From a virus: a stretch of 64,000 nt of DNA. Shown piece by piece: positions 3,204-23,959 of this stretch (positions are counted from its first letter, which is position 1; every line of letters starts with the position of its first letter). Where the stretch lies: the IMG/VR virus record IMGVR_UViG_3300042484_001840, positions 32,001 through 96,000 of that record. One strand, 5' to 3'. The position numbers were made by a program, and so were the translations under genes. The notes beneath the pieces were generated by a model. It worked only from the letters and a program-made list of their open reading frames with translations, did no database searches and had not been told where the DNA came from.

Positions 3204-3235
3204 CTTTACTGAAAGTCGTACTTTACTGAAAGTAC
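3202..3235. promoter_or_regulatory. Two tandem palindromes GACTTT-ACTG-AAAGTC / GTACTTT-ACTG-AAAGTAC
   Basis: Seen directly between portal and protease; the core CTTTACTGAAAG recurs at 3434-3445. Confidence 0.5.
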
Positions 3236-3296
3236 CTTCCACTAGCAGTACCCCTATTGCGTTTATGATTAGTGTGTTAGTTACATGAGGTGAAAA

Positions 3297-4982
3297 ATGC
3301 CTGTACAAGAAGCAATAGAATTCAAAGCAATGCCTGGTCAAATTGGTATTGACGAGGCTAAAGGCATCGTTGAATGCTTCGTTGCTGGTGTTGGCAACAA
3401 GGACAGCGTTGGCGATATTGTTCTTTCTGGTGCCTTTACTGAAAGTCTGAAGCGACGCAAGCCACGAGTCGTTTGGGGTCACGACTGGAATCACCCAATT
3501 GGCAAAGTTCTAGAAATTTACGAAGTACCTGCTAATGACCCTCGTTTGCCCGCAAAAATGAAGCGCGCTGGAATTGGTGGTCTTTATGCTCGCGTTCAGT
3601 TTAATTTAAAGGCAGATAAAGGTCGCGAGGCGTTTGCCAATGTCGCGTTCTATGGCGAGGACCAAGAATGGTCAATCGGCTACAAAACTTTAGATGCTAT
3701 TTACGATAATGGTCGCCAAGCAAATCTACTTCGTGAAGTAGAACTATATGAAGTAAGCCCTGTATTGCACGGAGCAAACCAACTGACGGGCACTATTTCT
3801 ATTAAAGCAGCAAAAAAAGACGAGCCAGTAAACTCTTTTGGAAAATCAAAATGGGTGATGTTTGATCGTGAATTTGCAAGTCGCCTGAAAAAGGATTATC
3901 CACAAATTTGGGCGCTTGGTGGAAACATCAAGGGCAATGATCAGTATCGCATATTGACACAGATTGCCGAAGCGGGTGGAGTTGCCAAAAATCAGGCACA
4001 GACAAATGCATTAGAATTGCGTGAAGCATGGGTGGCGCGTCATGCAGGAGATTTCCGACTACCTGGCGTAATTGCTCAAATCAAGTGGTTAGCAGTGGGT
4101 AGTCGCGGTGAAGACCACATGAAAAATGTAGTCCGTGAAGCGATGCAAAAGCAAGATGCCAAAATGAAGGAAAAGACATTCCCAGCAGGGGAAATGGACG
4201 AAGAAGAAATGCCAAAAGGCATGGTAGGTCGTCAAATGGGGATGGCTCGCGCTTTGGCGATGGAACTTGGGAATAGGTTTGGTGGTCCTGCTAAAATTCG
4301 CCATGCTGATTCAAATATGGTTGTTTTTGACCACATCATGAATGGCGTTCCAAGCACCATGCGTGTTGCTTTCCATTTTGACGGTGAACGGTTTATGTTC
4401 GGTAAACCAGACCGCGTAAAGCCTACTGTCGTGTATATGCCAGAAAACGAAGATGAGGAATACTCCAAGCCTTCAAAGCCAATGATGAAACCAACTAATG
4501 CTGGCAATGTTTACGACGATCAGTACGAAGATGAGGATAAGCCCGTCTGGATGAAGCCCAAGGCTTGCGGTTGTGGCGGGAAAACTAATGCGTCTTCAGA
4601 AATTGATGATGCATTTGACAGTTTCAAATCTCTTTTTTCTGAAGAGGTCAAGGCTGGTCGCGCTATCAGTTCTGGCAATCTTGAAAAATTGATGCAGGCT
4701 ATTGAATTGATTCGTGGTGTTGTAGCAGGTGGCGGGCGAGCCGAAATTGAAATGAAAGATCCAAGCGCCAACATCTCAACTAACATTGAAGACTTGTTTG
4801 GAGTTAAGCAATTACTTGACCCAGTTTTTGAATACCATAATTTAAAAACACTCGCAACCGAGACTGGTATTGAAATAAAGGGTATAGTTTCAAGTAGTGC
4901 AATGAGCGCCATCAACACGGCGCTTAGTGTTTCTGATTATGATGCTGAATTAGTAGTGGAAAATAATTACACCGATAACTGA
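3297..4982 (+). CDS. HK97-family prohead protease with long C-terminal extension
   Basis: GNKDSVGDIVLSGAF, WGHDWNHPIG (catalytic His), EWSIGY (catalytic Ser), LYEVSPVLHGAN; lies directly after the portal. Confidence 0.92.
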   Translation: MPVQEAIEFKAMPGQIGIDEAKGIVECFVAGVGNKDSVGDIVLSGAFTESLKRRKPRVVWGHDWNHPIGKVLEIYEVPANDPRLPAKMKRAGIGGLYARVQFNLKADKGREAFANVAFYGEDQEWSIGYKTLDAIYDNGRQANLLREVELYEVSPVLHGANQLTGTISIKAAKKDEPVNSFGKSKWVMFDREFASRLKKDYPQIWALGGNIKGNDQYRILTQIAEAGGVAKNQAQTNALELREAWVARHAGDFRLPGVIAQIKWLAVGSRGEDHMKNVVREAMQKQDAKMKEKTFPAGEMDEEEMPKGMVGRQMGMARALAMELGNRFGGPAKIRHADSNMVVFDHIMNGVPSTMRVAFHFDGERFMFGKPDRVKPTVVYMPENEDEEYSKPSKPMMKPTNAGNVYDDQYEDEDKPVWMKPKACGCGGKTNASSEIDDAFDSFKSLFSEEVKAGRAISSGNLEKLMQAIELIRGVVAGGGRAEIEMKDPSANISTNIEDLFGVKQLLDPVFEYHNLKTLATETGIEIKGIVSSSAMSAINTALSVSDYDAELVVENNYTDN

Positions 4983-7281: not shown

Positions 7282-9219
7282 TTGGAAGATAGTGACCGCA
7301 GGGAAAACCATCCTGACTGGGTTCAGGCACGGGTTAAATCATTTATTCAGGATACAAAAGTCGGCACTGTTCGTTCTGGTTCTGGCGTAGGGCAAGCACT
7401 ACAAGGCGCAGTTTCATATGTAACTCCTGGTGATGTTAGTGGTGTAACTAGCCCTGTTCGCTCTCGTCTTTACTCCGCCATTACTCCTGGTGGTCGTGGC
7501 TTGCGCCCTCGTGTCAATAGACCAAATGAGCGCGGATATCGTTGCCCTGAGGGATATCAGTTTGGTGGTCGCTTTACTGACTCCAAGTGGTCCACATGTG
7601 GACGACAGTTATTTGATATCCCATCACTATCACGAACTTTGCTTCAAATTGCCGATAACGCTATTCGTGTAGGGCGTGGTATTGGTTATCAAAATCCTGA
7701 CACAAACCCTCTTGGTGGTGCCGAAGTTACTGGCGGTTCATTGATTCAGAGCCGTATGGCAAATATTCCTCGTGTTAGTGCTTTTGACAAAAAGAAGCGT
7801 GATGATGGCTTAAAGGCGGCAATTGACGAGTTAGTCAATCCATTGGCTCCAGCGTCAATGATGATTCGGCGCGATGGTTTCCCAATGCAACCAGTCGTTT
7901 CTGCTGGAGAATTACGGAAAGTTCCAGACAATCGCAATATGGAAGGCGCAGTCTTTCTATTGTCTGCATCCAATATTGATTCTTTTGGTGGCGATGAATT
8001 GGGTTTATTGTCAAATACTGGCGTGAGCACTTTGATTTATGTTCTACCTAATGGTTCTACTGTTCGTATGGACAAAACCCGTGCGTTAACCGTAGGCGAA
8101 CGGCGCAAGTTGGGCAAGACTGTCAGTTCGGCATCCAAGATTGACAATAGTAATGATCCATTGGCTCGTCTAAAAATGGTCATTTCAGACTCTGGTGGCG
8201 GAATTTCTATCAACAAAGATTTTTCTAAAATTCGCAATGCTGAAGAAGTTGTTGATTCAGGCAAATTTAAAGGAAAGCCTCGCTGGGTTGCTGAAGCGTT
8301 TCGCAATAGTGGCAAAAAGCGTACTGTTTCTCCCCAGTCAATTGTTGATGATTCCAAGTTGGATTCCGAAACAGAAACTCAAGCAAGTAAAAATATTAAT
8401 GATATTGAAACTGCTATTGAACATATAAACAACGGTGGAAATCTTTCTGATATTAATCCCGCTATTTTGCCTCAGGCTATTCGTCGTGCAAAAGTTTATC
8501 GTCAAAAGAATATTGGATCTGGTCGTATTCTTTTTGAGCGTGCTGACGGCGGTGTTTCTTTTATAGAGGTTTCCAATGGAAAGCGCCTTGAGCATCTTGG
8601 TGCCCATTTTTCTGCCGCTATCGCTGAACATCTTGAATTACCTACTCCTAAAGTCCGCATCATGGGCGAAGGAGACAATCGCCCGTACCTCGTTCAAAAC
8701 ATTGATACTGTCGTGCCAAATGGCAAATTACAATCTATGAAGTTGACAGATATGCCCGCAAAAGACCTTGCTGGTATTTTTGTTTCTGATTACTTGACAG
8801 ATGTTCGCAAACGAAATCCTTCTACTGTTTCGGCTGTTTCTGCTGATGGTAAAGTTCGCGCAATTGCAACGATGAATACCCCCTCGTCGTTGGCTGGTTT
8901 ATCTGCTGAAGAAATGATCAAGCGTCGCTCCATTGTTATTGGCGATTGGGTAAAAGCAGATGGGAATAACATGATTAATGCCATCAAAAACCGCAATGAA
9001 GAAGTTCGTCGTCAAATTCTGGCTGTTTATGAAGATTTAATTCAACGAGCACGCGCTTTTAAATGGGATAGATACATTAAGCAACTACGGTTAGACGGTA
9101 AACTTTCTAGTGCAGAACAAAAGCATATGGATATTGTTAAATCTCTATATGACCAAAGACTAGACAATTTAGCCAAGTCTAAGGAATCTTTTGCTAATAT
9201 TTTGGAGTTAGGCAAATGA
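7282..9219 (+). CDS. RCPxG-motif protein with C-terminal degenerate HipA/PI3-PI4K-like (pseudo)kinase
   Basis: RCPEGYQFGGRFTDSKWSTCG near the N-terminus. The C-terminal AAIAEHLELPTP...IFVSDYLTDVRKRNPSTV...AIATMN aligns with the DRHxxN and ID(N/F)G loops of the neighbouring kinases but lacks both Asp residues. Confidence 0.6.
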   Translation: MEDSDRRENHPDWVQARVKSFIQDTKVGTVRSGSGVGQALQGAVSYVTPGDVSGVTSPVRSRLYSAITPGGRGLRPRVNRPNERGYRCPEGYQFGGRFTDSKWSTCGRQLFDIPSLSRTLLQIADNAIRVGRGIGYQNPDTNPLGGAEVTGGSLIQSRMANIPRVSAFDKKKRDDGLKAAIDELVNPLAPASMMIRRDGFPMQPVVSAGELRKVPDNRNMEGAVFLLSASNIDSFGGDELGLLSNTGVSTLIYVLPNGSTVRMDKTRALTVGERRKLGKTVSSASKIDNSNDPLARLKMVISDSGGGISINKDFSKIRNAEEVVDSGKFKGKPRWVAEAFRNSGKKRTVSPQSIVDDSKLDSETETQASKNINDIETAIEHINNGGNLSDINPAILPQAIRRAKVYRQKNIGSGRILFERADGGVSFIEVSNGKRLEHLGAHFSAAIAEHLELPTPKVRIMGEGDNRPYLVQNIDTVVPNGKLQSMKLTDMPAKDLAGIFVSDYLTDVRKRNPSTVSAVSADGKVRAIATMNTPSSLAGLSAEEMIKRRSIVIGDWVKADGNNMINAIKNRNEEVRRQILAVYEDLIQRARAFKWDRYIKQLRLDGKLSSAEQKHMDIVKSLYDQRLDNLAKSKESFANILELGK

Positions 9220-12200
9220 GTAAAATAGTTCTTATTAAAGACGCAATCAAGGATGAGCCATACGCTCTTGTGTCTTACGACTTCATGGAAGTTAAGGCAT
9301 TTGCGTTAACGGACGATGCCGAAGAGTGGTCTGAGTGGGCTAATCAGTCATGTAAAACAATTGACGAGATTCGTGAAAGTCTTACCTATTCACTTCAGAC
9401 AGAACTTCCACGACCAGCAACTGAAATTGAATTAGATGGAATTAAGCAATTCACCACATCTGAGCGTTTTATTCAAATTAAGTCTGCAATTAGTGAATCA
9501 AAACTTGAAATGGTTGGCACATTCAGTCGTCAGAGTCGTCGCTTTGCCGTAAAGACATTGAAAGATTCGGAACTTCCAGAAAGTCCATCTTCATTGCCTT
9601 TGACTTCTTTTAGTGCTCAAAGTCGGCAGGCAATCATTGAGTATAAGGCCTTGTCTTACAGGGCTGACAATAAGTTCTCGGCTACAGCCTTTGAAGCAAA
9701 GGGTGCGCGAGCATTATGGGACCCCTCCCTTGGACCATCTGGCGGATGGCGATGCCCTACTGGTTCTCAGTTCGGTGGATACATCACTGACCGCTTTGGT
9801 CGTGGATGCGGTGGAGGGGTTCTCCGTCGTGTTGGGCGAGCATTAGTTGATGCAGGTCGTGGAATTGACAAATTGGGCGAGGCACGAGGCGCTCGTCGTC
9901 TTGGTCGTGCCGCTGACAAACTCAATAATAAGCCTGGTGGCGGACGCGCTCAGCGTGCCGTTGGTAATGCGGCTAATGCCCTTGAGCGTGGCGCACAGCG
10001 TTTGGTGGGAGACTTTAAGCCTGGTGATGGGCGTGCTCGTCGTCGTGGTATTTCAGCACCAGATATTGCTCCTGAGCGTAAAAAGGAAATTGATGACCGC
10101 TTGATGGCTATTCAGGCAGAACTTGATGATCTGGTTGATCAGCCTCCGACTGGCGATATTGAGAAGCGTATTACAGAACTTACCAATGAAAATAAGAAGT
10201 TGCGTCGCGAGCGAGATGGAGCAATGCCAAAGCGCATTTCTGCCGTTAAGCCTGCTCCATCAAAGCGTCGTGTTGTTAAGCCTGAGGCTGGACGCAACGA
10301 GCGAGTTCAAGGTGCACGCCCTGTAAAGAAGCCAGTTACGCAAGGTCGTCGTCAGGGCGTTCTAGATCGTGCCGCTCAACGACTCGTTGGAGAATATGAC
10401 CCATCAGAGTATAAGCCTGGTGACAAAAAGCGTATCAAAGATCGCGAAAATCGCTACGCAAAAGTTTCTGATGAAGCATTGATTAATGCGCTAAAGATGA
10501 ACTCGCCCAAGGCTGTTAAGCCGGGTCAGAATCGTGACATTGAGGCAAACAAGCGTCAAGAGCGACTTGAAGTTCTTCAGGAAATGCTCAATCGTGGCAT
10601 TGATGTCCCAGAACAATTCAAGAAGGAAGTCAAGCAGTATCGCTTAAAGCCCCAGCGTAAGAAGCGTGGCGCTAAGGCTGGTAGTCGTCGTAGTCGTGCC
10701 GCCAACGCCCTAGAGCGAGCCGCTCAGCGAGTTCTTGCAGGGGACAAGAATAAGAAGCGTCGTGACCGTAGTCGTCGCAAGCGTGCCGCCGATGCTCTTG
10801 AGCGTGGTGCAAAACGGATTCTTGATGGTAAGAAAAAGCCTAAAAAACAAGATAATCGCAAAAAGCCACAACCAAACGGTGGTCTTAACCTACCTGGCGG
10901 TGGTCGTGGGATTATTGAACCGCGAGATACTGAAGGTCTACCAAAACCAGGTATGGGGGGCATGCGAAAGCCTGGTGAAGGTCAACTCAGTCTTGAAGAA
11001 CTTCAAGATTTAATAGATAGTAATGCAGGAATTACTGGTCTTTCTGAATTACGCAAACAGTTTAAAGATTATGACGATGCCCAGATTGACGATTTTTTAA
11101 GTCGTTTTGTTAAAGCACGCGAAAAAATAGATAATGATGATCCAGAAAGATTAAAACTTGACAAGTGGATCATCAATCTTGAAATGGAAAAAACCGCTCG
11201 TGAACTTGATCGCCTAAAGAAGGGCAAGAAAGAACGAGATAATCAGCGTGCCCGTGCTCGTCGTGCCGTTACCGCTCAAAGCGCATTTACCCCCATTCGT
11301 CGTCCACGCCCAAAGAAAATGAAGGGCGACAAGATTGCTTGGGACGATATGGATGCCCAGCAAAAAGCACGCATGCGTAATCGTGCTATTGCCGAACTTG
11401 ATGATCTTGATGCAAGTTGGCGCAAGCGTCTTGGTTTAAAGAGCAATGAACCACTCACTGACAAGATGATTCGTGACTACATTAAAGAACGAGAGAACAA
11501 CAAGCCTGGTGCTTACATTGGCGTTCTTAAGGCTAACGCTAACGACTGGGGCGTTCTTAAGGATTACGCAAATGACCTTGAGAATGGGGATATTCTAAAT
11601 AATCTTGGTCCGAAGCGTCGCAAGACACTTGTTGACGACTTGAATAATGCTTCTGCACCTAAGCGTGTTAAGACACCAAGTTCACCCCGACCCAAGTCTG
11701 CCCCAAGTGCAAAAAAGCGTGATGGTCTAAACGATAATGAAAAGAACCGTCTCAAAGAACTTGACGGACCTGAGTTTGACAACCAAGTAGAAGCATTTGA
11801 CGAAGCAGAGCGTCTGGCTAAAGCAAATAATGAATCTATGGTTGCGTTTGAACAAGATGGAAAATTCCGTGTTGTCAAGGCTCAAGACTTTAACGATCTA
11901 CTAGATGGCATTGATGATGACAGTCGTATGCAAAATGCGATTGGTAGTGTTCGCCATTTTGATGCTAATGGTAACGAAAGCAAAATTGATGTTTCCGAGT
12001 CTGCTCGCGTTAAGCAATCAATTAAAGAATCACTTGGCATTGATGCTCCAGAATCGCTTGGTGGCTCAATACCCGATGATCGGTCACGACGAAATGTGCG
12101 TAATCGGTTCCCGAATAATGGACTCCCCGATAAGGCATTCTGGCGAGACAAGGACTGGAAGCCTCGTACTGGTGGAGATGATGCAGAAAAGCATGAGCGT

Positions 12201-15200
12201 AGGTTTGGTCGCTACTTTGATTCCGATGGCAATATTAATGCTCGTGGTCGCTTTGTTAACGCTCAGTTAGAACAAGAGCGAGCAGAAAAGGCAAAGCCTA
12301 GGTTTAGTAAGACACCAGAATCTGTAATTCCAGAATCTAGTCGTAGAAAAACATCTACTTTTAATTTTGGTAAAGTTGAAGTTTTTGGCGAGGATAATAA
12401 CGGAAGAGTTCTTTGGAAAGACAAAGATGGCTTTGTTATTCCTGACAACATCGTAAATGATGAAGCCGTACGACAACGCTACATGCGTTATGCAAAAGAG
12501 GGGCGAGATGCCTATCTAAATGGAACATTTGCGCAAAATCTTGGCAAAAAGATTGATGATCTTTTAGTCAATAACGACCCCGATAAGCGTCGTGATTTAA
12601 GAACTAATCTCCAAAATCTCATTGAAGATCGTCGTTTTTTAATTGCACGAGATAACCCCGTTGCGGAACGAGGCAAATGGGCTGGGGAATTAGTCGCATT
12701 CCAAAACATGCTTAACGAGTTGGATGCTCATCCAAACGCAGTAGACATTTCCCCAATGAAAAATGAAGGACTTGATTCCTTGCCCAAGGCTTCTATTAAG
12801 CGTCGCGATTTATCCCTTATCAAATTGCCTGAATTTAAAGAAGCAAAAGAAGTATTCGTTCAATATTATGACCTTCGTAATGACAGGTTCAAAGCACATC
12901 TTGAAAACGACAGGCTTGATGATGCAAATATCATGATTGAAGGACTTGCTAACGAAATTGATGGGCATAATAAGATGTTGGCTGACCCTGCAATGCCCGA
13001 AGAAGACAGAATTAAGATTTTAGCGCGCCGTTCAGCCGCTCTTGAAAAAGTAGGTAAGTTTAACCAAGATTTGCAACTTCGTATGGATGAAATCAATAAA
13101 CGAATTGGCGCAGAGAACGCTGCACGATTAGGAATTCCAAGACTAAGCGAAGGCAACATCCCAGATAGTGTTGACGCACGGCGGAGAGCAATCATTGGAA
13201 ACAATTATGAAATAAGGCTTTTGGACAATATCAACCTTGAAAGAGCAAAGGAACGCGCTGCGGAACTTGCAAAAGAAAAAAATGATGGCGAAGGCATCTA
13301 TGTTACACAGGATAAAAAGAGTGGCAAATTCTTCTTACTAACTCGGGCTAATTTTGAAGAAGCAGTTAAAAACGATGCTTTTTCTGAAAATTATGTCGTT
13401 GATGCTGTCGTCTATGCCGCAAAGACCCCAGCGCCACCAAAGCCTCCTAGCGTTGCAAGAATTCCTGATCTAAATGATCCGTTTGATGGATTTAAATTGT
13501 GGAACATGCCAATGAGTTTTGATGCGGACGATAAAGGTAATGCAATCAACGCAGCAAAAAGATATGCTGTTGAATTTGATAGCGATTTTGTAGTAGCACA
13601 ACGCATAAGTGATGGAAAGAAATTTGTTCTTGATGCTCGTGACTGGAATGACTTTGTAAACTCTCCAAAAGTAAATAGTGATGATTTCACTGGCGTGGCA
13701 ATTTTTGGCGGATATGGAAGAGATACCGACGGAATGCCTCGGCTAAACGCTGGCAAAAAACAACTTATTAATGAAATGCAAAGTAGAGATTTAGGTCGCG
13801 TTTTCCCTAAGGGTAATCGCATTTTTGGTAGTGGTGATAAGAAAGCAAAAGAACGCGCTCAAAAGTTTGCCAAAGAACAAGCAGATGCCGATGGTCGGAA
13901 TCGTTATGTTATTGACACTGGCAAAGAATATATGGTTGTCAATGAAAAAGAATATAAAGAACTGCTAGCAGAATTCAATAACAAGGAACAACGCCTAAAT
14001 GCAACGCTATCTCCAGAGAAGTTCATTAGAGAACGAAAAGGGAATAATGGAGTAGGTAGGGGCGCTCTTTCTGGTCCAAGGGAAATGGATATTGATTCCG
14101 ACGAATATAAAGACGCTGTTGTAGCAGTACATCAACAGAAGGGGTCAATTCAAGATATTCCAGACCCACTATTTGCTGCTGTTGTATTTGACGAAAACAT
14201 TACGGACGGTAAGGGCAATTCATTAGAAATGCCAGATGGAAGTGGCGTTGTTCAATTTGAGGACATTTTTTCTGGACGCTTTCAGCCAGATGAAAATTTT
14301 AGATTTGAAAATTTAAGATTTAAGTTTACGCAGAAAAAGCCAAATAATTACAGAGACCCAGACTATGGCGGGGTCTGGGCTGTTTATAAAGTTGAAGACA
14401 AGCAAACTGGCGAAACTTGGTGGATTAAATCTTCGGCATATGGAGTTCATGACGCACTACTTGAAGACATTGGCATGGAAGGTGCTGGTATCTTTAATTT
14501 TGCCGCTGCAAATAACGCAAAGAACATAAGAATTAGTGGTGAAATTCCGCTTGAGCAAAATGGTAGAAAAGTCAGATGGACTGCCATGCGTGATATTGAT
14601 GCATGGGAAGCCCCAGAGGGTCAAGAGCAACTCAGTTGGGTAGATGCCAATAATGGTGGCATTGACGGCAATAATGTCAGTCTAGAAGATATGGCTAATA
14701 TTTTTGTTATGGATTTTGTCTTGGATAATCAAGATAGGCATGGCGGAAACTTCAAAATTGCAACTGATAATAATGGTGTTCAGCGTCTAGGCATTATTGA
14801 TAATGGTTTAATGTTTGGTGGTCGCGGATATGACATTATTGGTATGAGCCGTGATAACCCATTATCAAAAGCAGACATTAATCAAATTGCTGCAGAACGA
14901 GAAGCGTTAGACATGAAGGGATATGCAGAGGGTGATGGAAATATTTTAATAAGAGGATACAGTCTTCCTTCTTCATTCAAGAATCGCCTAGCGTCAAGTC
15001 AATTTGCTAGAGATGAATTCAATCTTCAGGTTAAATACTCAATTGAAACAATGCGAGAAAATATTGACAGAATTCTTGATGAGCAAAGAATTAAAGGAAA
15101 AGGTATTAAACTTTCAGAAACAGAACTAGCACATCTAAAAGCAATGAAATTAGTTGCTGATGCTCGCTTGAAATATCTTGAAGCAAACCCAACTGCTGTG

Positions 15201-15341
15201 ACTGACTATTTGTTGAAAGACCTACAAGTTAATCAGTCTTCTTCAACTCCCAGTCCAATAAATGCCCCAATGTCTCCAATTCGTCGCCCAAGGGGATTAA
15301 CTGGTCGTCAGGTTGGCTCGCCTTTTGCTGGAGGATTGTAA
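9216..15341 (+). CDS. 2041-aa putative virion cargo protein with C-terminal HipA/CtkA/PI3-PI4K-like kinase
   Basis: KGARALWDPSLGPSGGWRCPTGSQFGGYITDRFGRGCG motif, Arg/Lys-rich ALERxAQRLVG repeats and four internal alpha/beta repeats. Kinase motifs: WWIKSS, ALLEDIG, DFVLDNQDRHGGN (about 14733), IIDNG. Confidence 0.8.
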   Translation: MSKIVLIKDAIKDEPYALVSYDFMEVKAFALTDDAEEWSEWANQSCKTIDEIRESLTYSLQTELPRPATEIELDGIKQFTTSERFIQIKSAISESKLEMVGTFSRQSRRFAVKTLKDSELPESPSSLPLTSFSAQSRQAIIEYKALSYRADNKFSATAFEAKGARALWDPSLGPSGGWRCPTGSQFGGYITDRFGRGCGGGVLRRVGRALVDAGRGIDKLGEARGARRLGRAADKLNNKPGGGRAQRAVGNAANALERGAQRLVGDFKPGDGRARRRGISAPDIAPERKKEIDDRLMAIQAELDDLVDQPPTGDIEKRITELTNENKKLRRERDGAMPKRISAVKPAPSKRRVVKPEAGRNERVQGARPVKKPVTQGRRQGVLDRAAQRLVGEYDPSEYKPGDKKRIKDRENRYAKVSDEALINALKMNSPKAVKPGQNRDIEANKRQERLEVLQEMLNRGIDVPEQFKKEVKQYRLKPQRKKRGAKAGSRRSRAANALERAAQRVLAGDKNKKRRDRSRRKRAADALERGAKRILDGKKKPKKQDNRKKPQPNGGLNLPGGGRGIIEPRDTEGLPKPGMGGMRKPGEGQLSLEELQDLIDSNAGITGLSELRKQFKDYDDAQIDDFLSRFVKAREKIDNDDPERLKLDKWIINLEMEKTARELDRLKKGKKERDNQRARARRAVTAQSAFTPIRRPRPKKMKGDKIAWDDMDAQQKARMRNRAIAELDDLDASWRKRLGLKSNEPLTDKMIRDYIKERENNKPGAYIGVLKANANDWGVLKDYANDLENGDILNNLGPKRRKTLVDDLNNASAPKRVKTPSSPRPKSAPSAKKRDGLNDNEKNRLKELDGPEFDNQVEAFDEAERLAKANNESMVAFEQDGKFRVVKAQDFNDLLDGIDDDSRMQNAIGSVRHFDANGNESKIDVSESARVKQSIKESLGIDAPESLGGSIPDDRSRRNVRNRFPNNGLPDKAFWRDKDWKPRTGGDDAEKHERRFGRYFDSDGNINARGRFVNAQLEQERAEKAKPRFSKTPESVIPESSRRKTSTFNFGKVEVFGEDNNGRVLWKDKDGFVIPDNIVNDEAVRQRYMRYAKEGRDAYLNGTFAQNLGKKIDDLLVNNDPDKRRDLRTNLQNLIEDRRFLIARDNPVAERGKWAGELVAFQNMLNELDAHPNAVDISPMKNEGLDSLPKASIKRRDLSLIKLPEFKEAKEVFVQYYDLRNDRFKAHLENDRLDDANIMIEGLANEIDGHNKMLADPAMPEEDRIKILARRSAALEKVGKFNQDLQLRMDEINKRIGAENAARLGIPRLSEGNIPDSVDARRRAIIGNNYEIRLLDNINLERAKERAAELAKEKNDGEGIYVTQDKKSGKFFLLTRANFEEAVKNDAFSENYVVDAVVYAAKTPAPPKPPSVARIPDLNDPFDGFKLWNMPMSFDADDKGNAINAAKRYAVEFDSDFVVAQRISDGKKFVLDARDWNDFVNSPKVNSDDFTGVAIFGGYGRDTDGMPRLNAGKKQLINEMQSRDLGRVFPKGNRIFGSGDKKAKERAQKFAKEQADADGRNRYVIDTGKEYMVVNEKEYKELLAEFNNKEQRLNATLSPEKFIRERKGNNGVGRGALSGPREMDIDSDEYKDAVVAVHQQKGSIQDIPDPLFAAVVFDENITDGKGNSLEMPDGSGVVQFEDIFSGRFQPDENFRFENLRFKFTQKKPNNYRDPDYGGVWAVYKVEDKQTGETWWIKSSAYGVHDALLEDIGMEGAGIFNFAAANNAKNIRISGEIPLEQNGRKVRWTAMRDIDAWEAPEGQEQLSWVDANNGGIDGNNVSLEDMANIFVMDFVLDNQDRHGGNFKIATDNNGVQRLGIIDNGLMFGGRGYDIIGMSRDNPLSKADINQIAAEREALDMKGYAEGDGNILIRGYSLPSSFKNRLASSQFARDEFNLQVKYSIETMRENIDRILDEQRIKGKGIKLSETELAHLKAMKLVADARLKYLEANPTAVTDYLLKDLQVNQSSSTPSPINAPMSPIRRPRGLTGRQVGSPFAGGL

Positions 15342-15342
15342 A

Positions 15343-15690
15343 ATGGAACAAGATATTGAAAGAACAGAAAAATCTTTAAAGGATTTAAAGAAAGAAATCA
15401 CATATCCTGCTGTTATTTATGTTGAGACAGAACAGGGAAATATTGCTCCAATTTTAGTTCTTGAACGAAAAGGTAGAATTACTTCTTATTTTTGGGGCGA
15501 TGTTAAACGCTATGATTCAAATGAGTATAATGTTGTTGGTGATACTGTAAGACTATCTATAGGTTCGCAGTCGTCAGCAAAACTATTTTTTATTGATAAT
15601 GCCACTCCTGTGGACATTGACAGACTTATAGATCAGGCTAAGAAAAATAAGATAGTCAAACCAGAACCTAAAGGCAAAACATCAAAATGA
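15343..15690 (+). CDS. Small protein immediately downstream of kinase gene (candidate immunity/partner)
   Basis: ATG 1 nt after the kinase stop with GGAGG upstream; overlaps the start of the next gene. Confidence 0.6.
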   Translation: MEQDIERTEKSLKDLKKEITYPAVIYVETEQGNIAPILVLERKGRITSYFWGDVKRYDSNEYNVVGDTVRLSIGSQSSAKLFFIDNATPVDIDRLIDQAKKNKIVKPEPKGKTSK

Positions 15691-18600
15691 CTACCGATTG
15701 CGAAACTTGTCGTCCGCTTGTAAAAGTCATGAACCCCCAAATGTCTACGGACCGTAGGCGGTTTATGATTGAGAGCAAGGCTGCCGAATATCGCAAACAC
15801 ATGGGTCAGCCAAGCGGTTTATTGCAAAAGGGTGCTCGGGCAATATTTGACCCTAAACTTGGTCCGTCTGGTGGATATCGCTGTCCTGAGGGGAGTCAGT
15901 TTGGTGGTTACATTACCGACCGCTTTGGCAGAGGCTGTGGTGGGGGTATTATTCGCCGTGTCGGGCGAGCCTTTGGAAAACTAGGTCGTGGATTAGATAA
16001 CATTGCAGACAGGCGTGACCGTAGTCGTTTGGGTCGTGCCGTCAATCGCCGTAGTAAGCCTAATCGCGTTGCTCGTGCCGCTGGTGCGCTAGAGCGTGGA
16101 GCACAAAGACTTGTTGGCGAATACAAGCCCGGTGACTACAAACCAGGTGACGGTGGTCGTCGTAATAGGCGCAACCTACCTGGTGGACCCTCTTTGCGTC
16201 GTTCTGCTGTTCCACGCAAACCTAAGCGTGAACGCAAACTGCCCAAAGACGGGGACAAGAAGCCTCGCACCCAAGGGGCAACTCCCAAAAAGCGCCCCAT
16301 TATTGAGCGCGCTGCTGAAGGGCTAGAACGCGCTGCTCAGCGTGTTTTGGATGAAGATCGCAAGAAAAGAACACAAGGCGCTAAGCCTGCCAAGCCGAAG
16401 AAGCCTGTTGCTCCCAAGGTTCCTTCACTGAAGCCAAATGTTTCAGAAGATAAAAAACGAAACATCACCGACATTAATGATATTGACTGGGATAATTTAA
16501 CTCCCGAACAGCGTGACGAAATTCAAGGGATTCGTTGGGATGCCATTAGTGACCTTGAAGACAAAATGTCTAAGTATATTGGCGTTCCAAAAGAGCGCAT
16601 GGACCCTGTTCTATTTTTAGACAGAAATGAACGAAACAGAAATAATAAAAAATACCAAGCAGATGTGCTTAAGTGGAGACAATTACACAACAACTTTCAA
16701 GATATGCCAGCAGAAGCAATTAAAGAAATTGACTGGACCGATGGAGAACGCAAGAAGATTCTTGATGTTGTTAATGGGGATGTAAAGCCCGATCTTGCAA
16801 AAGACGGTGGAGAATTTGACTGGGATAATTTAACTCCAGAACAGCGTGGCAAAATCAAGGACATTGCAAACAATGCGCTAGAAGACGACAAAAAAGCACT
16901 TCTGAAACATTTTGGTGCTGCGAGTTGGAATAATGACAGAGTTAATCGTGCTATAGATTTAGCAGACAAAGGATTCATAAAGAAGGATAAAGCCAACGAA
17001 ATAGAAAAAATTGCATTGAGATGGAATCTGTTGCAAACCCAGTGGAATGACGAACCTAATCTTGCTATTAACGACATTAATTGGACAGACGACCAGCGTC
17101 AACAAATCCGTGATGCAATTGGCATAGAGGCTCCTAAGAAGCCCAAGACCCGTGGTGCTGACTTCTGGGAACGACGCAAGAATAACAAGCCGATCAAGCC
17201 TGAAGAATTAGATGTTGAGGATGCTCCAGAGATTTTCTCAAGCAAGCCAGACGGCACATCTGAAAGTAATCGTCTTGTCAAGGCTTGGGAACAAGCATAT
17301 GGAGACGAAATAGATAAATACTTTGCTGAGAAAAATGTAGATCGCCTTGAAAAATTAAAAAATTCAATAGATTTTATTCTCAATAAAAAAGAAATGAATC
17401 TATCTCCTGCTATGCGTCGGATGCTTCAAGAAAAAATTAATGACATAGACAAGAAGGTTGCTGCTCTCCGTGTGCGAAAAGCACGAGGTGCACGCACTGC
17501 CACACCAAAGCCAAAACTTCCCAGTCTTGTAGGTAAGCCAGTAAGCCGTCAATCAAAAATTACTCGTATTAAAGATAATGTCATTGATGCTTTGCGCATT
17601 AAAAACAGGCGTGAGAATGCTATGGGCGACTTTGCTCCAGACGCAATTGGTGATGGCGTACTTGCTTTCCCTGAAAACATTGTTAACGATGACATTAAAA
17701 ATGTGGCAGATGCAGTCAAGTGGCTTGATGACGGAAAATCATTATACGAAATTCCACAACATTATTGGCTAGAGGCAGTGACTGAGCATGTAGATAATGC
17801 AAGAAATCCACAATACAATAAAATTCCAATTAATAACCCTGGTGTTATTAAAAAGATTTTCATGTTTGAAAAATTAGACAAAGATGGAAAAGGCACTGGA
17901 ACTGGTGTCGTTTTTGCTCGTGCTCCAGGTAATGCAAGAGACGGCATGGGCGAGGTTATGGGTCAACAAGTCCTTAATGCTCTTGGTATGAATGTTGCTC
18001 CTGCGCGATTTGACGGAATTGTAAGAGACCCCGGCGGTGAAACTCCTGTTGCCGTAATGCCATTTGCTTGGAATAGGGCAGCACAAGGAGACATGCAACG
18101 ACCAGTAGCGATGAATTTTGACCGAAAGTTGTTTGATCAATTTGAAGATAAAGGATTCCCTGTACGACTAGGAAATTTATTAGGCAACTATTTCATGGGT
18201 GTTGGGGATAGGCACACAAATAACGCAATGATGGCAATTGTTGATGGTCAGCCTCATATTGTTCCTATTGACTTGGGCTGGAATGGTAACAGAAAAGATT
18301 TTTACCTTTATGCAAAGGGTGGATTTCAAGGTTTCTCAATGGACCCTGACTTATATGACAATATTGCAAATCACTTAGCCACACTTGATCCCGCAGAAGC
18401 AAAAAAACAACGCGATAAACTTGTTGAAGTTTTTGATGGAATGGTCTTGCGTGGTGATGCAATTGTTGCCCAAGGTAAAGATAAATTCATTAAAGATGCT
18501 GTAGCAATGATGCATCTTGGTGCTGATCCAGTTAAGAACGAGTCTTTTGTAGTAGAAATTGACAGAAAAGAACTTGAATCTACGATGGAGAAAAAAGCAT

Positions 18601-19937
18601 CGGATATATTTGATGCTTTAGAAGCAAATGTTGCGCAGGCGAAAAATGAAAGAGCGCGTTTATTTGATGCATGGGGAATGGAAGATGTTCCTTCATTGGG
18701 AGTACTTGAAGTAGTCCGCCCCACTAAGCCAAAGACACCAAAGGTATCTACACCCAAGGTATCCACACCTAAGGCACCTACCTCAAATGCATCCAAACCA
18801 AAAAGTGCTCTAGAAAGAATTATTGCACCACTTCGTATCAGTAATCCACAGAAAAGAAACCCACGAGTACCAATCTTGGCGGAAGTAAAATCTGGTGAAT
18901 TAATTGCTCGTCCAAAAATGATAGAAAATCCAAAAATTAAAAACCGCCAAAATGCCAAAGACTGGCTTGACAATGGTGGGCTAATTGAGGAAGTTCCGCA
19001 AAGATTTTGGGCACAAGCACTTTCTGACCATGTAAATGGTAACGCGGCAGTGAAACAGTATAAAGAAATTGACCCATCTGATGAAGTAGGTCAAGGTGCA
19101 GTTAAGACTACAAGAATTTACTTGGCACTTGATGAAAATGGTAAACCAACTGCCCAAGGGTTCCTCATTCAACGCGAAGGTGGAGTAGATAAACTCGGTG
19201 GGGCATTAGACAGAAATAATGTGGCAGAGTTGGTTGTAGCAAACATGCTCAATGCCTTTGGACTTAACTACGAACCAGCAAGACTAGATGGTCAACTTGA
19301 CGAAGATGGAAAAGAAGATTTAAATAAAGTTCCTGCTGTTGTTATTCCATTTGCATGGAATGGCGGACCAAACTATGTGAATGTTCAAAAGCCAAGTGGG
19401 TGGAATGCCGCCAACTTTGACAGGGATATTTTTGATGGTCTTGCTGATAAGGCATACCCACAGCGACTAGCAGCCTTTTTGGGAAATCTTGCTTTTGCCA
19501 TTCCTGATAGGCATGACCAAAATCAAATGGGTCAAATTATTGATGGTGTTCCTATGGTCGTTCCAATTGACTTTGGTTGGGCAGGCAAATACGGTCCAAT
19601 GGATTTCTATGATTATTTAGATGGCGAATTTGAAGAACTTGAACCTGACTTTTTTATGGACATGCAAAATCATTTGAATGGTTTAGACAAACAAACAAAA
19701 ATTGAACAAACACAAGCAATCAAACAAGTTTGGGACAATATTGAATCAAAACTAGAAGAAACATTTAATCGCGGGAAAGATCAATTTATTAACGATTTCC
19801 TTGATTTCTTAACACCAGAACAACGAGCAAACACAAGAGTGGTTGATCAGGCAACATATAAACTTAAGCAAATGTATGAACTTTTAGAAACACAATACAA
19901 TGAAATTCAAATTAATCGTCCTGAATTTCTTAAGTAA
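15687..19937 (+). CDS. 1416-aa putative virion cargo protein with two tandem HipA/PI3-PI4K-like kinase domains
   Basis: KGARAIFDPKLGPSGGYRCPEGSQFGGYITDRFGRGCG motif and WDNLTPEQR repeats. Kinase 1: GNYFMGVGDRHTNN...VPIDLG (about 18207). Kinase 2: GNLAFAIPDRHDQN...VPIDFG (about 19506). Confidence 0.8.
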   Translation: MTTDCETCRPLVKVMNPQMSTDRRRFMIESKAAEYRKHMGQPSGLLQKGARAIFDPKLGPSGGYRCPEGSQFGGYITDRFGRGCGGGIIRRVGRAFGKLGRGLDNIADRRDRSRLGRAVNRRSKPNRVARAAGALERGAQRLVGEYKPGDYKPGDGGRRNRRNLPGGPSLRRSAVPRKPKRERKLPKDGDKKPRTQGATPKKRPIIERAAEGLERAAQRVLDEDRKKRTQGAKPAKPKKPVAPKVPSLKPNVSEDKKRNITDINDIDWDNLTPEQRDEIQGIRWDAISDLEDKMSKYIGVPKERMDPVLFLDRNERNRNNKKYQADVLKWRQLHNNFQDMPAEAIKEIDWTDGERKKILDVVNGDVKPDLAKDGGEFDWDNLTPEQRGKIKDIANNALEDDKKALLKHFGAASWNNDRVNRAIDLADKGFIKKDKANEIEKIALRWNLLQTQWNDEPNLAINDINWTDDQRQQIRDAIGIEAPKKPKTRGADFWERRKNNKPIKPEELDVEDAPEIFSSKPDGTSESNRLVKAWEQAYGDEIDKYFAEKNVDRLEKLKNSIDFILNKKEMNLSPAMRRMLQEKINDIDKKVAALRVRKARGARTATPKPKLPSLVGKPVSRQSKITRIKDNVIDALRIKNRRENAMGDFAPDAIGDGVLAFPENIVNDDIKNVADAVKWLDDGKSLYEIPQHYWLEAVTEHVDNARNPQYNKIPINNPGVIKKIFMFEKLDKDGKGTGTGVVFARAPGNARDGMGEVMGQQVLNALGMNVAPARFDGIVRDPGGETPVAVMPFAWNRAAQGDMQRPVAMNFDRKLFDQFEDKGFPVRLGNLLGNYFMGVGDRHTNNAMMAIVDGQPHIVPIDLGWNGNRKDFYLYAKGGFQGFSMDPDLYDNIANHLATLDPAEAKKQRDKLVEVFDGMVLRGDAIVAQGKDKFIKDAVAMMHLGADPVKNESFVVEIDRKELESTMEKKASDIFDALEANVAQAKNERARLFDAWGMEDVPSLGVLEVVRPTKPKTPKVSTPKVSTPKAPTSNASKPKSALERIIAPLRISNPQKRNPRVPILAEVKSGELIARPKMIENPKIKNRQNAKDWLDNGGLIEEVPQRFWAQALSDHVNGNAAVKQYKEIDPSDEVGQGAVKTTRIYLALDENGKPTAQGFLIQREGGVDKLGGALDRNNVAELVVANMLNAFGLNYEPARLDGQLDEDGKEDLNKVPAVVIPFAWNGGPNYVNVQKPSGWNAANFDRDIFDGLADKAYPQRLAAFLGNLAFAIPDRHDQNQMGQIIDGVPMVVPIDFGWAGKYGPMDFYDYLDGEFEELEPDFFMDMQNHLNGLDKQTKIEQTQAIKQVWDNIESKLEETFNRGKDQFINDFLDFLTPEQRANTRVVDQATYKLKQMYELLETQYNEIQINRPEFLK

Positions 19938-19954
19938 GGTAACAAGGAACTGAC

Positions 19955-20380
19955 ATGGCTCAATATTTAATAGTTTACTCAGCAATTAATCCTGACTATA
20001 AACGAGGCGCTCCGTCTGGTTCTATTAAGTTTGACGGAGTTTCTGCAACAATTGTTGGACCTGATAGATTTGTAAAAGATTGGTCAAAGAAATTATCTAT
20101 TTCCTCGGTCTTGGCTTCAAGCATTAATGACAACAAAGTGGATATTTCAAGTTTTGTTTCAACAAACACCTATGTTGACATGATCTTTTTTGATGACGAT
20201 AGCGCATCTAAGAGTGATGATGGAAAATTAAAAAAGTTATACGATTCCATTTCTGGAAGTAAAAGAAAAATCACCCTTGAACGACTTCCAACTTTTGATG
20301 ATCCAGACTTTACAATTGAAAAACGAAATGCTTTTTTCAAAAAGGCACGCAAAATCAAAGAACAAAGTAGAAAAAAATAA
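19955..20380 (+). CDS. Small partner protein 1 (candidate immunity), paralog of next gene
   Basis: MAQYLI...SIKFDGV...W...SSVLASSINDNKVDI aligns with 20380-20709; AAGGA RBS. Confidence 0.65.
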   Translation: MAQYLIVYSAINPDYKRGAPSGSIKFDGVSATIVGPDRFVKDWSKKLSISSVLASSINDNKVDISSFVSTNTYVDMIFFDDDSASKSDDGKLKKLYDSISGSKRKITLERLPTFDDPDFTIEKRNAFFKKARKIKEQSRKK

Positions 20381-20709
20381 TGGCTGAATATCTTATTTAT
20401 CATGGCGATTTTGGCTCCAGTATTGACGACCCCGGTCTGATGTCAATTAAGGCTGATGGGGTCAAATTAACTATTCGGACCTCTCGTGACATGATGGAAG
20501 AGTGGAAAGATCGCATTGAAAATTCTATGGTTTTGCAGGGTTCAATAAAAGATGGACAAGTAGACCTTGAAAGATATATTTTTGCTAATAAGTATTCCAC
20601 ATGGACATTCTTTACTCAAGAAGAATTTGATGACTATAAAAAAGTGTACAATTCTGTAAAGGGTTCATCAGTAGTTGTGACTATTAAGCCAGAGAAAAAG
20701 AGCAACTAA
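20380..20709 (+). CDS. Small partner protein 2 (candidate immunity), paralog of previous gene
   Basis: MAEYLI...SIKADGV...W...NSMVLQGSIKDGQVDL; translationally coupled. Confidence 0.65.
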   Translation: MAEYLIYHGDFGSSIDDPGLMSIKADGVKLTIRTSRDMMEEWKDRIENSMVLQGSIKDGQVDLERYIFANKYSTWTFFTQEEFDDYKKVYNSVKGSSVVVTIKPEKKSN

Positions 20710-20710
20710 A

Positions 20711-23700
20711 ATGGCAAAGATGCGCGCGTCATCCAAAGAAGATGCAATGAAGATTGCACGCTATGTTGGCTGTTCTGGCGCACACCAAGATAAGAAGGGG
20801 AATTGGATACCTTGTGCCAATCCCGAAGATCTGGTGGAGATCCTAGATAAATCTGCAAGAAACTCTACTGAAAAGTTAACCAAGAAAAAGCGTCGTCGGT
20901 TTGTTAATGGTCAATGGGAAAGACTCGGAGAACGAGGTCCTATCAGTATTGACACAATTGACGGCGGTGGACTTGTGTCTGGTATGGGCAAGTCATTAAC
21001 TGAATGGTTCAAAGAGGAATGGGTTGATATTTCAAGACCCAAAAAGGGTGGCGGGTTTGAGGCGTGCGGACGAGATGACGCAGACAAGGGCAAATACCCT
21101 AAATGCGTACCAGCGTCACGAGCAAGCAATATGTCAGAGGAAGAAATTCGTTCTGCGGTTTCACGAAAAAGAAGAGCAGAATCTACACAAAGTAGAGATG
21201 GCAAAAAACCGATTTATGTTCCTACTGATAAAAAGAACGACCCATTTGTTTTGAACGAAAAATCAGCAATACCCACAAATCCAGAACTTTATGCACGGGT
21301 TAAGGCTGAAGCAAAAAAGAAGTTTGATGTTTATCCTTCTGCTTACGCAAACGCTTGGTTAGTAAGGGAATACAAAAAACGGGGTGGCGGATATCGTTCT
21401 GAAAAAGCAGACGATGGCGATTATGAAGACTTTGTTGAAGACCTCACAGAAATGCAACTATCCGATTTTATTGATTGGGTAGATCAAAAAGAAAAAGCAG
21501 AAAAGGTCTGCCCGCCAGCAACATCAGATATTGGCTTAAATATCAAGAATCGTCAGAATGCTATCAACACGGCTGGTTATGGTCCCCTAAACCCTAAAGA
21601 ACCCAATGTGGACTTTTGGGAAAAGAAGGCAAAACGCTGGTCTGTAACGATTGAAGAATCCAAGAAACAAAAGTGCGGAAACTGTGCTGTCTTTATTAAG
21701 ACTCCTCGGATTCTTGAATGCATTGAGTCGGGTCTTGGTAATGAGGCTGGAGACACTGCTTGGGATGCAATCAATGCTGGTGACCTTGGATACTGCGAGG
21801 CATTTGACTTCAAGTGTGCTTCTGCCCGTACCTGTGATGCATGGGTCGGTGGAGGTCCAGTAACTGTTGAAAAGGGTAAGCAAGAGGAAAAGGCTGATAC
21901 TTCCACGATTATTATTGGTCGTGCTAAGCCTCGCATTGGTGACCCCGATGTCTACACCGACCCCAACTCTGCTCGTCTGCGTTCTCGTAAACTTGGTTGC
22001 ATTGGTATCGCTCGTAGAGAAACGCCAGATGGAGAAGTTGTCTGGACACCCTGCACAAATATCTCAGATCAACGCAGATACCAAGGCGAAACACCCTTAG
22101 GTCAGCGAGATGAGGCTCGGCGTTTTGCTGACAGACTTGCTGAAGTTGGCGGTCCTGATCGTAAGCGCCGACGCATGCGTAAGTACAAGAGCCTTGAATA
22201 CACGACAGATATAAAGGCTTTTCGGACTTTGGGTTCAAGTATGGGCGGTCGCGGGATCAGTGGTAGTTGTCGTGAATTTACTGGAGTTGATGGCGATGGT
22301 GATGGATTCGTATGTAATCCCGCCTCTCGCGAGGACGACCTACCCCTTGCGGACACCCGAAAAATTTTTAAGCGTGGCGGTAAAATGCTGTCAAGACAAG
22401 AATTGGTAGAGCAAGATGAAACAATTCTTAATATGTTTGGCAAAGGTGAATCTTTATCAAAAATCGGTAAAGAAGTAGATCTTGACCCAAAAGAAGTTGA
22501 TTTTTTAATCAATGGTTTCCGCAAAAATAATCCAAAATCTGCATTCACATTATTCAATAATCGCAATATCAATATTCAAAAAAAGCGTGAAGAGCGCAGG
22601 AAATTAGTACTTGAGAATGTTAGAAAAGCCACAGATGCCAACCGCAAGTTAAATGCAAGAGGCGAAGACCCTACGCCAGAATCTGATGATGATCTTGATT
22701 TTACCCTTGATCCAGATAAGGTTCCTCAATATCTTAAAAAGAATTTTGCTAAATATATGCAACGCTTAAAAGACCCTGAATTTGCTGATGAAATAAAAAA
22801 AATTGCTGATGATTTGCGTGCTGGTCTTGGTTTGGCTGGAACGGCAAAAAAATACAAACGAGACTCAGCATTTATAGAAATTGTTCGTAGAAATGAAAAA
22901 ATTACAAAAACAAAAAAACTACAAAAAAACATTAGAGAATCAGAAGTTCCTGATTTTAATAATGATACTGATGACCCCGATTTTACTCTTGACCCAGAAA
23001 AAATTCCTCAATTTTTAAAAAGGGGTTTTGCTGGTAATGTTAGGCTAGCAAGAAGTCCTGAGTTTGCGGAAGAAAGAAAGAAAATTGCTGATGACTTGCT
23101 CCTTGGTCTTGGAATTAATGCCGTAAGATTAAAATATAATCGCGATACTTCATTGGTAGATGTAGTTCGCAGGCTTGAAAAAATTCCAAAATCAAAAGAA
23201 CTCAAAAAAGTTGATCCTAAAATTAGACAGGATGTTGTTGACCTTGTAGATAAATTGATTAAAGATGATAATCCATTCATGTCGGTTGCCGAAATCGCAA
23301 AAGAATTTAAAATTACTGGAATGGATGCGCGTCGGATTATTAATGCTGCAAAATTGGAAAAATATTTTGATTTGCACAATAAATATACAGACGCAAAAAG
23401 AAAAAAACTTTTTGCTGAAGTTGCTGAACTTCATAAACTTGATCTTACATATGAAGAAATAGGCAAACGCTTAGGAATTAGTGGTGATGCAGTAAATCAT
23501 ATTGTAAAAAAAATGAAACTACCCCTAAGACGACCTGGCGGGGGAGGTGGTCTTCCTGGAGTAATAAAAAGAGGTGGCGTAATGATTCCTCGTTCATTGG
23601 CAATGAAACAAAACAAGGAAATGCTTGACTTGTATCAGCGTGGCTATTCTCTTACAGATATTGCTAAAGAAATGGGAATCGGTGTTGCTACCGTTAGGGA

Positions 23701-23959
23701 AATTATTAAAAAATTTGCAGACAATGACAAAGTTCGTATTCGTGGAAATAATGTTACTGAAAAAGAAAATCAAATAAGAAAACTTTTGAAAGAAGGTTTG
23801 CACCCTCGTGAAATTATGCGAGACATTATAGGTAATGTTACATATAGTAGAATTTTAGAAATTGCAAAAGAAGAAGATATTAAAATTCCTCCTATGCGTA
23901 AATTTAAATCCGACAATCAAAACTTCAATTCATTTGAGAACAATGATTATTTTTACTAA
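20711..23959 (+). CDS. 1082-aa modular protein: string of small Cys-containing phage domains plus about 7 tandem HTH-like repeats
   Basis: Two GCxG...WxPC modules, a WFKEEWVD module, a YPSAYANAWLVREYKKRGG module, a CPPATSD...CGNC...YCEAFDFKC module and DGDGDG, then HTH-like segments (LTYEEIGKRLGIS, YSLTDIAKEMGIG, MSVAEIAKEFKIT). Confidence 0.65.
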   Translation: MAKMRASSKEDAMKIARYVGCSGAHQDKKGNWIPCANPEDLVEILDKSARNSTEKLTKKKRRRFVNGQWERLGERGPISIDTIDGGGLVSGMGKSLTEWFKEEWVDISRPKKGGGFEACGRDDADKGKYPKCVPASRASNMSEEEIRSAVSRKRRAESTQSRDGKKPIYVPTDKKNDPFVLNEKSAIPTNPELYARVKAEAKKKFDVYPSAYANAWLVREYKKRGGGYRSEKADDGDYEDFVEDLTEMQLSDFIDWVDQKEKAEKVCPPATSDIGLNIKNRQNAINTAGYGPLNPKEPNVDFWEKKAKRWSVTIEESKKQKCGNCAVFIKTPRILECIESGLGNEAGDTAWDAINAGDLGYCEAFDFKCASARTCDAWVGGGPVTVEKGKQEEKADTSTIIIGRAKPRIGDPDVYTDPNSARLRSRKLGCIGIARRETPDGEVVWTPCTNISDQRRYQGETPLGQRDEARRFADRLAEVGGPDRKRRRMRKYKSLEYTTDIKAFRTLGSSMGGRGISGSCREFTGVDGDGDGFVCNPASREDDLPLADTRKIFKRGGKMLSRQELVEQDETILNMFGKGESLSKIGKEVDLDPKEVDFLINGFRKNNPKSAFTLFNNRNINIQKKREERRKLVLENVRKATDANRKLNARGEDPTPESDDDLDFTLDPDKVPQYLKKNFAKYMQRLKDPEFADEIKKIADDLRAGLGLAGTAKKYKRDSAFIEIVRRNEKITKTKKLQKNIRESEVPDFNNDTDDPDFTLDPEKIPQFLKRGFAGNVRLARSPEFAEERKKIADDLLLGLGINAVRLKYNRDTSLVDVVRRLEKIPKSKELKKVDPKIRQDVVDLVDKLIKDDNPFMSVAEIAKEFKITGMDARRIINAAKLEKYFDLHNKYTDAKRKKLFAEVAELHKLDLTYEEIGKRLGISGDAVNHIVKKMKLPLRRPGGGGGLPGVIKRGGVMIPRSLAMKQNKEMLDLYQRGYSLTDIAKEMGIGVATVREIIKKFADNDKVRIRGNNVTEKENQIRKLLKEGLHPREIMRDIIGNVTYSRILEIAKEEDIKIPPMRKFKSDNQNFNSFENNDYFY

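Follow-up and report, generated by a model that had tools for sequence, protein, structure and literature searches.

The question raised by this locus is what the small genes do that follow the kinase-bearing giant genes among the head genes of a large, uncultured phage from a lake. The locus lies in a 64,000-nucleotide (nt) stretch, here called the window, which covers positions 32,001-96,000 of the virus record IMGVR_UViG_3300042484_001840 (145,042 bases, 98% complete according to CheckV) and represents the head module of the phage. Three genes on the plus strand encode proteins which share a strongly conserved RCPxGxQFGG motif (RCP motif) near the N-terminus. The first protein of this series, p645 (7282-9219; motif at amino acid (aa) 88), ends in a pseudokinase domain (aa 354-621, ~8341-9144), and no free-standing partner gene is located behind it. 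The second, p2041 (9216-15341; motif at aa 180), starts with a folded N-terminal domain (N-dom, aa 1 to ~96, 9216-9503) and carries a single C-terminal kinase. It is followed by p115 (15343-15690), which is preceded by GGAGG and starts 1 nt past the p2041 stop codon. The third, p1416 (15687-19937; motif at aa 66), contains tandem kinases (aa 638-972, 17598-18602, and aa 1069-1405, 18891-19901) and is followed by p141 (19955-20380), a long form with a basic C-terminal tail, and the short form p109 (20380-20709). An earlier sequence-only reading had given this gene order with the same coordinates, one small gene behind the one-kinase gene and two behind the two-kinase gene, and both are confirmed. 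It had also proposed a strict 1:1 ratio of kinase modules and partners, with N-dom as the partner of the pseudokinase. For active modules this ratio stands, whereas the pairing of pseudokinase and N-dom is not supported. From the comparison of related loci, there is strong support for the rule that each active kinase module has a cognate small gene of its own. That its product binds the cognate kinase and silences it in the producing cell, according to the logic of toxin and immunity protein, is in our judgment somewhat better than an even bet.

The search for related loci with a single protein or with an alignment of the two paralogs p141 and p109 retrieved only one relative. The search with the RCP motif led to 42 viral loci, and look-ups of partner homologues added ~15 more. 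Across ~45 related uncultured phage loci, all 57 distinct genes that encode a full kinase domain have an open reading frame (ORF) of 60-165 aa at most 44 nt behind them, compared to 46 out of 122 other large genes (Fisher p 2e-18). The small genes also co-vary with the kinases. Kinase-domain clusters (35% identity), which were formed independently, map almost one to one onto the BLAST clusters of the small genes (designated c1, c2 and so on), and each clade of the kinase tree has one partner family. Among the small-gene families, the best links by profile-profile comparison (c9 and c11, 96%; c5 and c14, 95%; c6 and c8, 64%) mirror sister clades of the kinases. The p2041 kinase groups in the clade with partners of the c9, c11 and c12 type, and homologues of p115, which belongs to c12, are always found directly behind kinases of the same clade, even outside head operons. 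The partners are separate polypeptides throughout: hidden Markov models (HMMs) of the partner families had no hit in proteins of more than 200 aa among ~150 matches.

Four lines of evidence go beyond co-clustering, namely cassette swaps, copy number, a gene fusion, and a fourth kinase-partner pair. As in polymorphic toxins, a conserved N-terminal region is combined with an exchangeable C-terminal domain, and the small downstream gene changes together with this domain. The swaps are concordant: the N-terminal 450 aa of the swap backbones are 74-92% identical, while their kinase domains fall into separate clusters (<35% identity). In L017 and L018, the products of the N-dom gene are 92% identical over their first 450 aa and the upstream kinases 91%, whereas the kinase and its matching partner are of the c8 type in one phage and of the c5 type in the other. 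L022 and L035 share an 89% identical backbone with kinase and partner of the c8 versus the c10 type, and in L020 and L025 both positions carry differing kinase/partner types. Copy number follows the same rule. The single-kinase giants of L057/58 and L055/56 have one c6 partner each, and the c6 partner of single-kinase relatives is always the long form (p141 type). Two-kinase genes of four lineages (the window, L003, L008-10, and L053/54) are followed by two partners each. The domains of the two-kinase genes constitute one clade (support 0.99) that excludes the single-kinase relatives; therefore, the kinase domain was duplicated jointly with its partner gene. A single protein of L038 combines a kinase with domain X, which is not a kinase, and both cognate small-gene families are encoded behind it.

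The fourth pair is located ~10-14 kb past the end of the window in a non-structural region of the same genome (L067; G000:C1:105806-109975, minus strand). It comprises a fourth active kinase of 679 aa (ORF 1432-3471, minus strand) with a leader of the form EPYDPDAIDADxDG... and, directly behind it, a 110-aa paralog of p115 (ORF 1100-1432, minus strand). The kinase is 38% identical to that of p2041 and the partner 37% to p115, as predicted if every active kinase has one partner. The similarity of the kinases starts at aa 1534 of p2041, the first residue of a C-terminal kinase cassette (aa 1534-2041, 13815-15341) with the kinase domain at aa 1628-1982 and the sequence DRHGGN at aa 1840. An orthologous pair, consisting of a 615-aa kinase and a 105-aa partner, was found in L005-7.

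The assignment of the kinases by the sequence-only reading (a pseudokinase in p645, one kinase in p2041, two in p1416) proved correct. An HMM of ~335 positions, built from 66 related kinase segments, detected one full domain in p2041 (188 bits), two in p1416 (258 and 238 bits), and a weak yet full-length match in p645 (aa 354-621, 26 bits). In an alignment of 25 kinase sequences, the catalytic loop D-R-H-x-x-N and the following metal-binding aspartate (I-D-x-G motif) are invariant, and the lysine and glutamate of the N-lobe are nearly so. Both catalytic aspartates are replaced in p645 and its long-form relatives, which is why p645 is regarded as a pseudokinase. The p645 family is conserved and includes long forms with and short forms without the pseudokinase domain. 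In profile searches of solved structures, the best matches were TOR, DNA-PKcs, and PI3K (E 6e-5 to 1e-3), covering the catalytic loop. Of the 25 relatives, 20 match the Pfam family PI3_PI4_kinase at E up to 0.1 (best 7e-9); the window proteins, at 20 and 22.5 bits, do not reach the PF00454 gathering threshold of 27.1 bits. Among isolated phages (tblastn, 50,697 records), neither the kinase domain nor p645 had a match.

The small proteins, for their part, cannot be joined into one family by sequence, contrary to what the sequence-only reading had inferred for p141, p109, p115, and N-dom. Its claim that p141 and p109 are paralogs is well founded (BLASTP, 32% identity, E 2e-13). BLASTP detected no similarity of N-dom or p115 to these two, and profile-profile comparison with p141/p109 using hhalign gave 0.3% for p115 and ≤2.5% for N-dom. 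The pattern P-x6-7-D-x15-W, on which the common family had been based, is present in p141, p109, and the N-terminus of p2041, and shuffled versions of each sequence produce it in 0.5-0.7% of the trials. It is not a family signature, since it is found in only 2 out of 30 members of the N-dom family and 14 out of 25 members of the p141/p109 family. Pfam and PHROGs had no entry for any of the small proteins. When 1.84 billion representatives were searched by HMMER with the profile of the p141/p109 family, ~16 free-standing proteins of 67-236 aa were detected, and neither a p115-like protein nor the N-terminus of a giant protein was among them. Long repetitive matches of this profile (P0035, P0039-41) were dropped as spurious multi-stretch alignments. 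Profile comparison merges the BLAST clusters into at least three sets: 'A' with c6 (p141 and p109), c8, and, weakly, c5 and c14; 'B' with c12 (p115), c9, c11, c22, and, weakly, c1 and c20; and c10. Comparing single and merged families, hhalign gave 0.4% for 'A' against 'B' and ≤2.5% for N-dom against any family. As judged from these profiles, the small genes comprise at least two or three families, mutually unrelated in sequence.

Two further types of homologue were encountered in these searches. P0027 (236 aa) and P0030 (228 aa), both encoded on short metagenome contigs, are natural fusions of a p109-type and a c10-type partner domain in one polypeptide; their C-terminal half matches family c10 in hhalign with 97.5%. 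P0042 (136 aa), encoded on Logan contigs of 6.9 and 8.7 kb, is a distant homologue of the p141 type whose gene is not preceded by that of a giant kinase. This gene adjoins those for a DNA methylase and a Z1-domain protein, and P0042 may be a partner orphaned in a defence-like setting.

If N-dom were a fourth partner which serves the preceding pseudokinase, the 1:1 ratio would be strict, as the sequence-only reading had it. The pseudokinase gene of the window, L011, L051, and L057/58 is indeed followed directly by the N-dom gene without a small gene between them. N-dom (residues 1-96; AlphaFold2 (AF2), predicted local distance difference test (pLDDT) ~90; order of strands (b) and helices (a) bbb-aa-b-aa) and p109 also share the order of the first five elements, bbb-a-a, within the first 60 residues. 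Moreover, a free-standing N-dom gene of 97 aa does exist (L042:10116-10409 and L043:7989-8282), its stop overlapping the start of a DUF3721 gene. This gene, the only clean case, looks like the product of a clean deletion, because the relatives L045 and L049 have a 900-aa N-dom kinase with its partner at this site. A dedicated search for free-standing forms retrieved seven short proteins, five of them on contigs <1.1 kb and two on longer contigs near the contig end; the short matches other than L042/L043 are ORFs cut near contig ends. L042 had also been considered as a second two-kinase lineage and was rejected, as the HMM finds one kinase domain there and the second small gene is the free-standing N-dom.

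The distribution of N-dom argues against such a partnership. Its 30 distinct homologues are nearly all N-terminal on RCP-motif giants, and 45 of the 48 matches of its HMM are fused at the N-terminus of a giant, compared to none of the ~150 matches of the partner families. Between phages in which the kinase on the same protein or the one upstream is of another type, the domain keeps 97-99% identity and therefore does not change in kinase swaps. It is found on non-kinase giants as well (L011, L040, and L050). The N-dom gene follows the first RCP gene in three of five lineages with and in about five of seven lineages without the pseudokinase domain; it stands directly behind short forms lacking this domain in L013, L032, L040, and L048, and it is not the next gene behind the long forms of L019 and L038. 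In many phages, it comes after a complete pair of kinase and partner. Finally, with the fourth pair counted, active kinase domains and free partners in the window's genome stand at 4:4 without invoking N-dom. We therefore give the strict version, with a partner for the pseudokinase, very little credence; N-dom is probably part of a conserved delivery or assembly backbone.

The small proteins might alternatively act as folding or packaging chaperones which hand the giants over to the procapsid. Secretion systems are known to have small dedicated chaperones whose genes adjoin that of the effector, and the small genes in question are located in a head-morphogenesis operon, tightly coupled to the genes of the giants. 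However, they track the variable C-terminal kinase type and not the conserved N-terminal region with the RCP motif, which would be the handle for packaging, and kinase/partner pairs also exist without the RCP motif outside head operons. Immunity proteins of polymorphic toxins follow the variable C-terminal domain (PMC3482391; PMC5576092), whereas secretion chaperones do not. A chaperone function is accordingly improbable. The best reading is a binding protein specific for the kinase domain, because the small genes track the variable kinase, are never fused to it, and persist with leaders other than the RCP type.

According to this reading of the comparative data, the small protein would be made together with its kinase late in infection, bind the cognate kinase domain specifically, and keep the kinase silent in the producing cell. 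On packing of the giant into the capsid, it would stay behind or be shed, and the giant would later be delivered into the next host. In the window, p115 would serve the kinase of p2041. The kinases of p1416 arose by tandem duplication, and the partner gene was duplicated along with them to yield p141 and p109.

Several points weigh against this reading. Shared descent accounts for part of the co-clustering of neighbouring genes, and of the observations above only the swaps, the fusion, and the pairs outside the head operon escape it. In L059, two kinase domains are accompanied by one c6 partner; this is the sole exception seen, on a contig of 3x coverage containing Ns. The isoelectric points of the partners span the range from acidic to basic. 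The host is near lysis when the genes are expressed, so that a need for self-protection is an assumption. Toxicity, binding, and neutralisation are predictions. The pairs of L067 and L005-7 are found outside the head operon and have no RCP motif; a role in keeping the kinase silent until packaging is not obvious there, and a regulatory subunit fits equally well.

The exceptional contig (L059:1-3446) encodes two KK1-like kinase domains (weak tree support), connected by a linker of ~320 aa, and behind them one gene of the p109 type. This arrangement, provided that it is real, hints that the p109 type pairs with the first kinase and the p141 type with the second; the fusion in L038 likewise hints at such a nested order.

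A regulatory or structural subunit would complete or activate the kinase, similar to the split N-subdomain-1 of HipA (HipS), which packs on the kinase core. HipS is a split domain of ~100 aa that inhibits the HipT kinase (PMC10627512), and the kinase genes of the hipJS and hipIN families have a HipS-like gene downstream (PMC8262856). The dimensions of the phage proteins are compatible with this arrangement: the kinase core spans ~335 positions and the partners have ~100 aa. The Pfam family HipA_2 is matched by 7 out of 25 kinase domains, and the pairs of L067 and L005-7 are co-expressed in the absence of packaging. For the N-dom model, VIA listed HipS (7ab3_B and 7vkb_B) as well as 4pu3_A, the N-subdomain of HipA, with Z 3.2-3.3, and for p109 it listed 7ab3_B with Z 2.1, but these values are at noise level. 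The element order of the p109 model also seems to differ: HipS has the fold bbbb-aaa-b, in which four N-terminal strands, three helices, and a fifth strand build a five-stranded sheet (PMC10627512), and p109 is predicted with bbb-aaa-b-a-b. Profile searches with the p141/p109 and N-dom families against all PDB chain sequences (E up to 10) yielded no Hip protein. The lead to HipS is thus biologically suggestive and unsupported by sequence or element order, and we consider a subunit that completes or activates the kinase unlikely. It overlaps with the favoured reading of a specific neutraliser, because HipS itself acts as an inhibitor.

The model of p109 itself is of high quality (AF2, pLDDT 93.8). 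Foldseek revealed no clear relative (best E 0.27 in the PDB and 0.12 in BFVD), and the best value in the wide VIA search was Z 3.0. For N-dom, the best VIA match was an adenylyl cyclase (Z 5.4), and BFVD contained one match, an uncharacterised phage protein of 236 aa (E 6.5e-6). For p115, the ESM Atlas contained neither a model nor a usable match.

Small genes were also observed behind proteins without a kinase domain. Some of the related phages possess a 'slot' gene between the gene of an acidic 87-aa protein and the first RCP gene (L018:6040-8192, L050:2334-4940, L032:5448-8185, and L038:753-4635), which is absent from the phage of the window. The N-terminal ~200 aa of the slot proteins are shared with up to 80% identity, while the C-terminus varies and is either a kinase (partner family c1) or domain X of ~530 aa (partner family c4). 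In L005-7, a non-kinase protein of 636 aa with the same leader as the 615-aa kinase has its own downstream gene of 85 aa. A helical family of 77-106 aa (c2; L016-L051, e.g., L018:19340-19597) is encoded behind non-kinase RCP giants of ~930-1350 aa and before the DUF3721 gene; the lineage of the window does not have it. In the window, the genes of the giants and their partners are embedded between those of the portal protein (933-3203), the prohead protease (3297-4982), p541, and p207 on the one side, the latter two lying between protease and p645, and those of p1082 (20711-23959), a DUF3721/DUF5872/helix-turn-helix protein, and the major capsid protein (24122-25420) on the other.

The closest known counterparts in phages are the MuF toxins (Jamet et al., 2017, PMC5576092), which are likewise head-associated, combine a conserved N-terminal part with variable C-terminal effectors, are followed by downstream immunity ORFs, and are proposed to be delivered with the DNA. 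In contrast to MuF toxins, the carriers described here are RCP-motif giants. The Pfam domain Phage_Mu_F is absent from p645, p2041, and p1416 and occurs in the window only at the C-terminus of the portal protein, where a Phage_Mu_F-like stretch (aa 667-752, E 7.5e-7) indicates a portal-MuF fusion. Furthermore, the effectors are kinases, a word that is absent from the text of Jamet et al. (2017, PMC5576092), and several of them are encoded in a row, including one gene with two modules and two partners. Among bacterial systems, the effectors of contact-dependent inhibition (CDI), Rhs, and type VI secretion systems (T6SS) keep the N-terminal trafficking region constant and exchange a cassette of C-terminal module and small downstream gene, whose product is never part of the effector polypeptide (Zhang et al., 2012, PMC3482391), as observed here. 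Unlike in these systems, delivery would presumably be accomplished by the phage capsid and tail instead of a bacterial secretion system, the producer is an infected cell in the lytic phase, and toxicity and immunity are putative. HipBST and HipJS (PMC10627512; PMC8262856) share a HipA/PI3K-like Ser/Thr kinase core and an adjacent gene for a mixed beta/alpha protein of ~100 aa; HipS binds the kinase domain, and the small gene of hipJS has the same downstream position. They differ in that the searches revealed no sequence similarity of the phage proteins to HipS or the HipA N-subdomain-1 (the structural match being limited to Z 2-3, with an apparently different element order), that a HipB-type regulator is missing, and that the kinases are C-terminal modules of giants of 600-2000 aa. 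The logic is known; the players and the strict bookkeeping per module are new.

Taken as a whole, the picture would be that of an undescribed plug-in warhead system of phages, in which PI3K/HipA-like kinase modules and kinase-specific small inhibitors are exchangeable two-part cassettes, mounted on capsid-delivered giants or on a separate leader, with the 1:1 ratio kept through tandem duplication and fusion and with at least one inhibitor family having a confidently predicted fold that lacks a clear solved relative. This full picture falls slightly short of an even chance in our estimation. If the small proteins are specific neutralisers, these lake phages build up a store of several active kinases, acting on proteins or lipids, for delivery into the next host and solve the problem of self-harm as bacteria do with toxin-immunity pairs. 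The logic of polymorphic toxins would then extend to kinase effectors inside a phage head operon, and several new families of natural proteins that bind kinases with high specificity would be at hand, one of them with the confidently predicted fold of p109. The rule of one free small gene per active module and none for the pseudokinase makes effector modules and their partners predictable in the genomes of uncultured phages.

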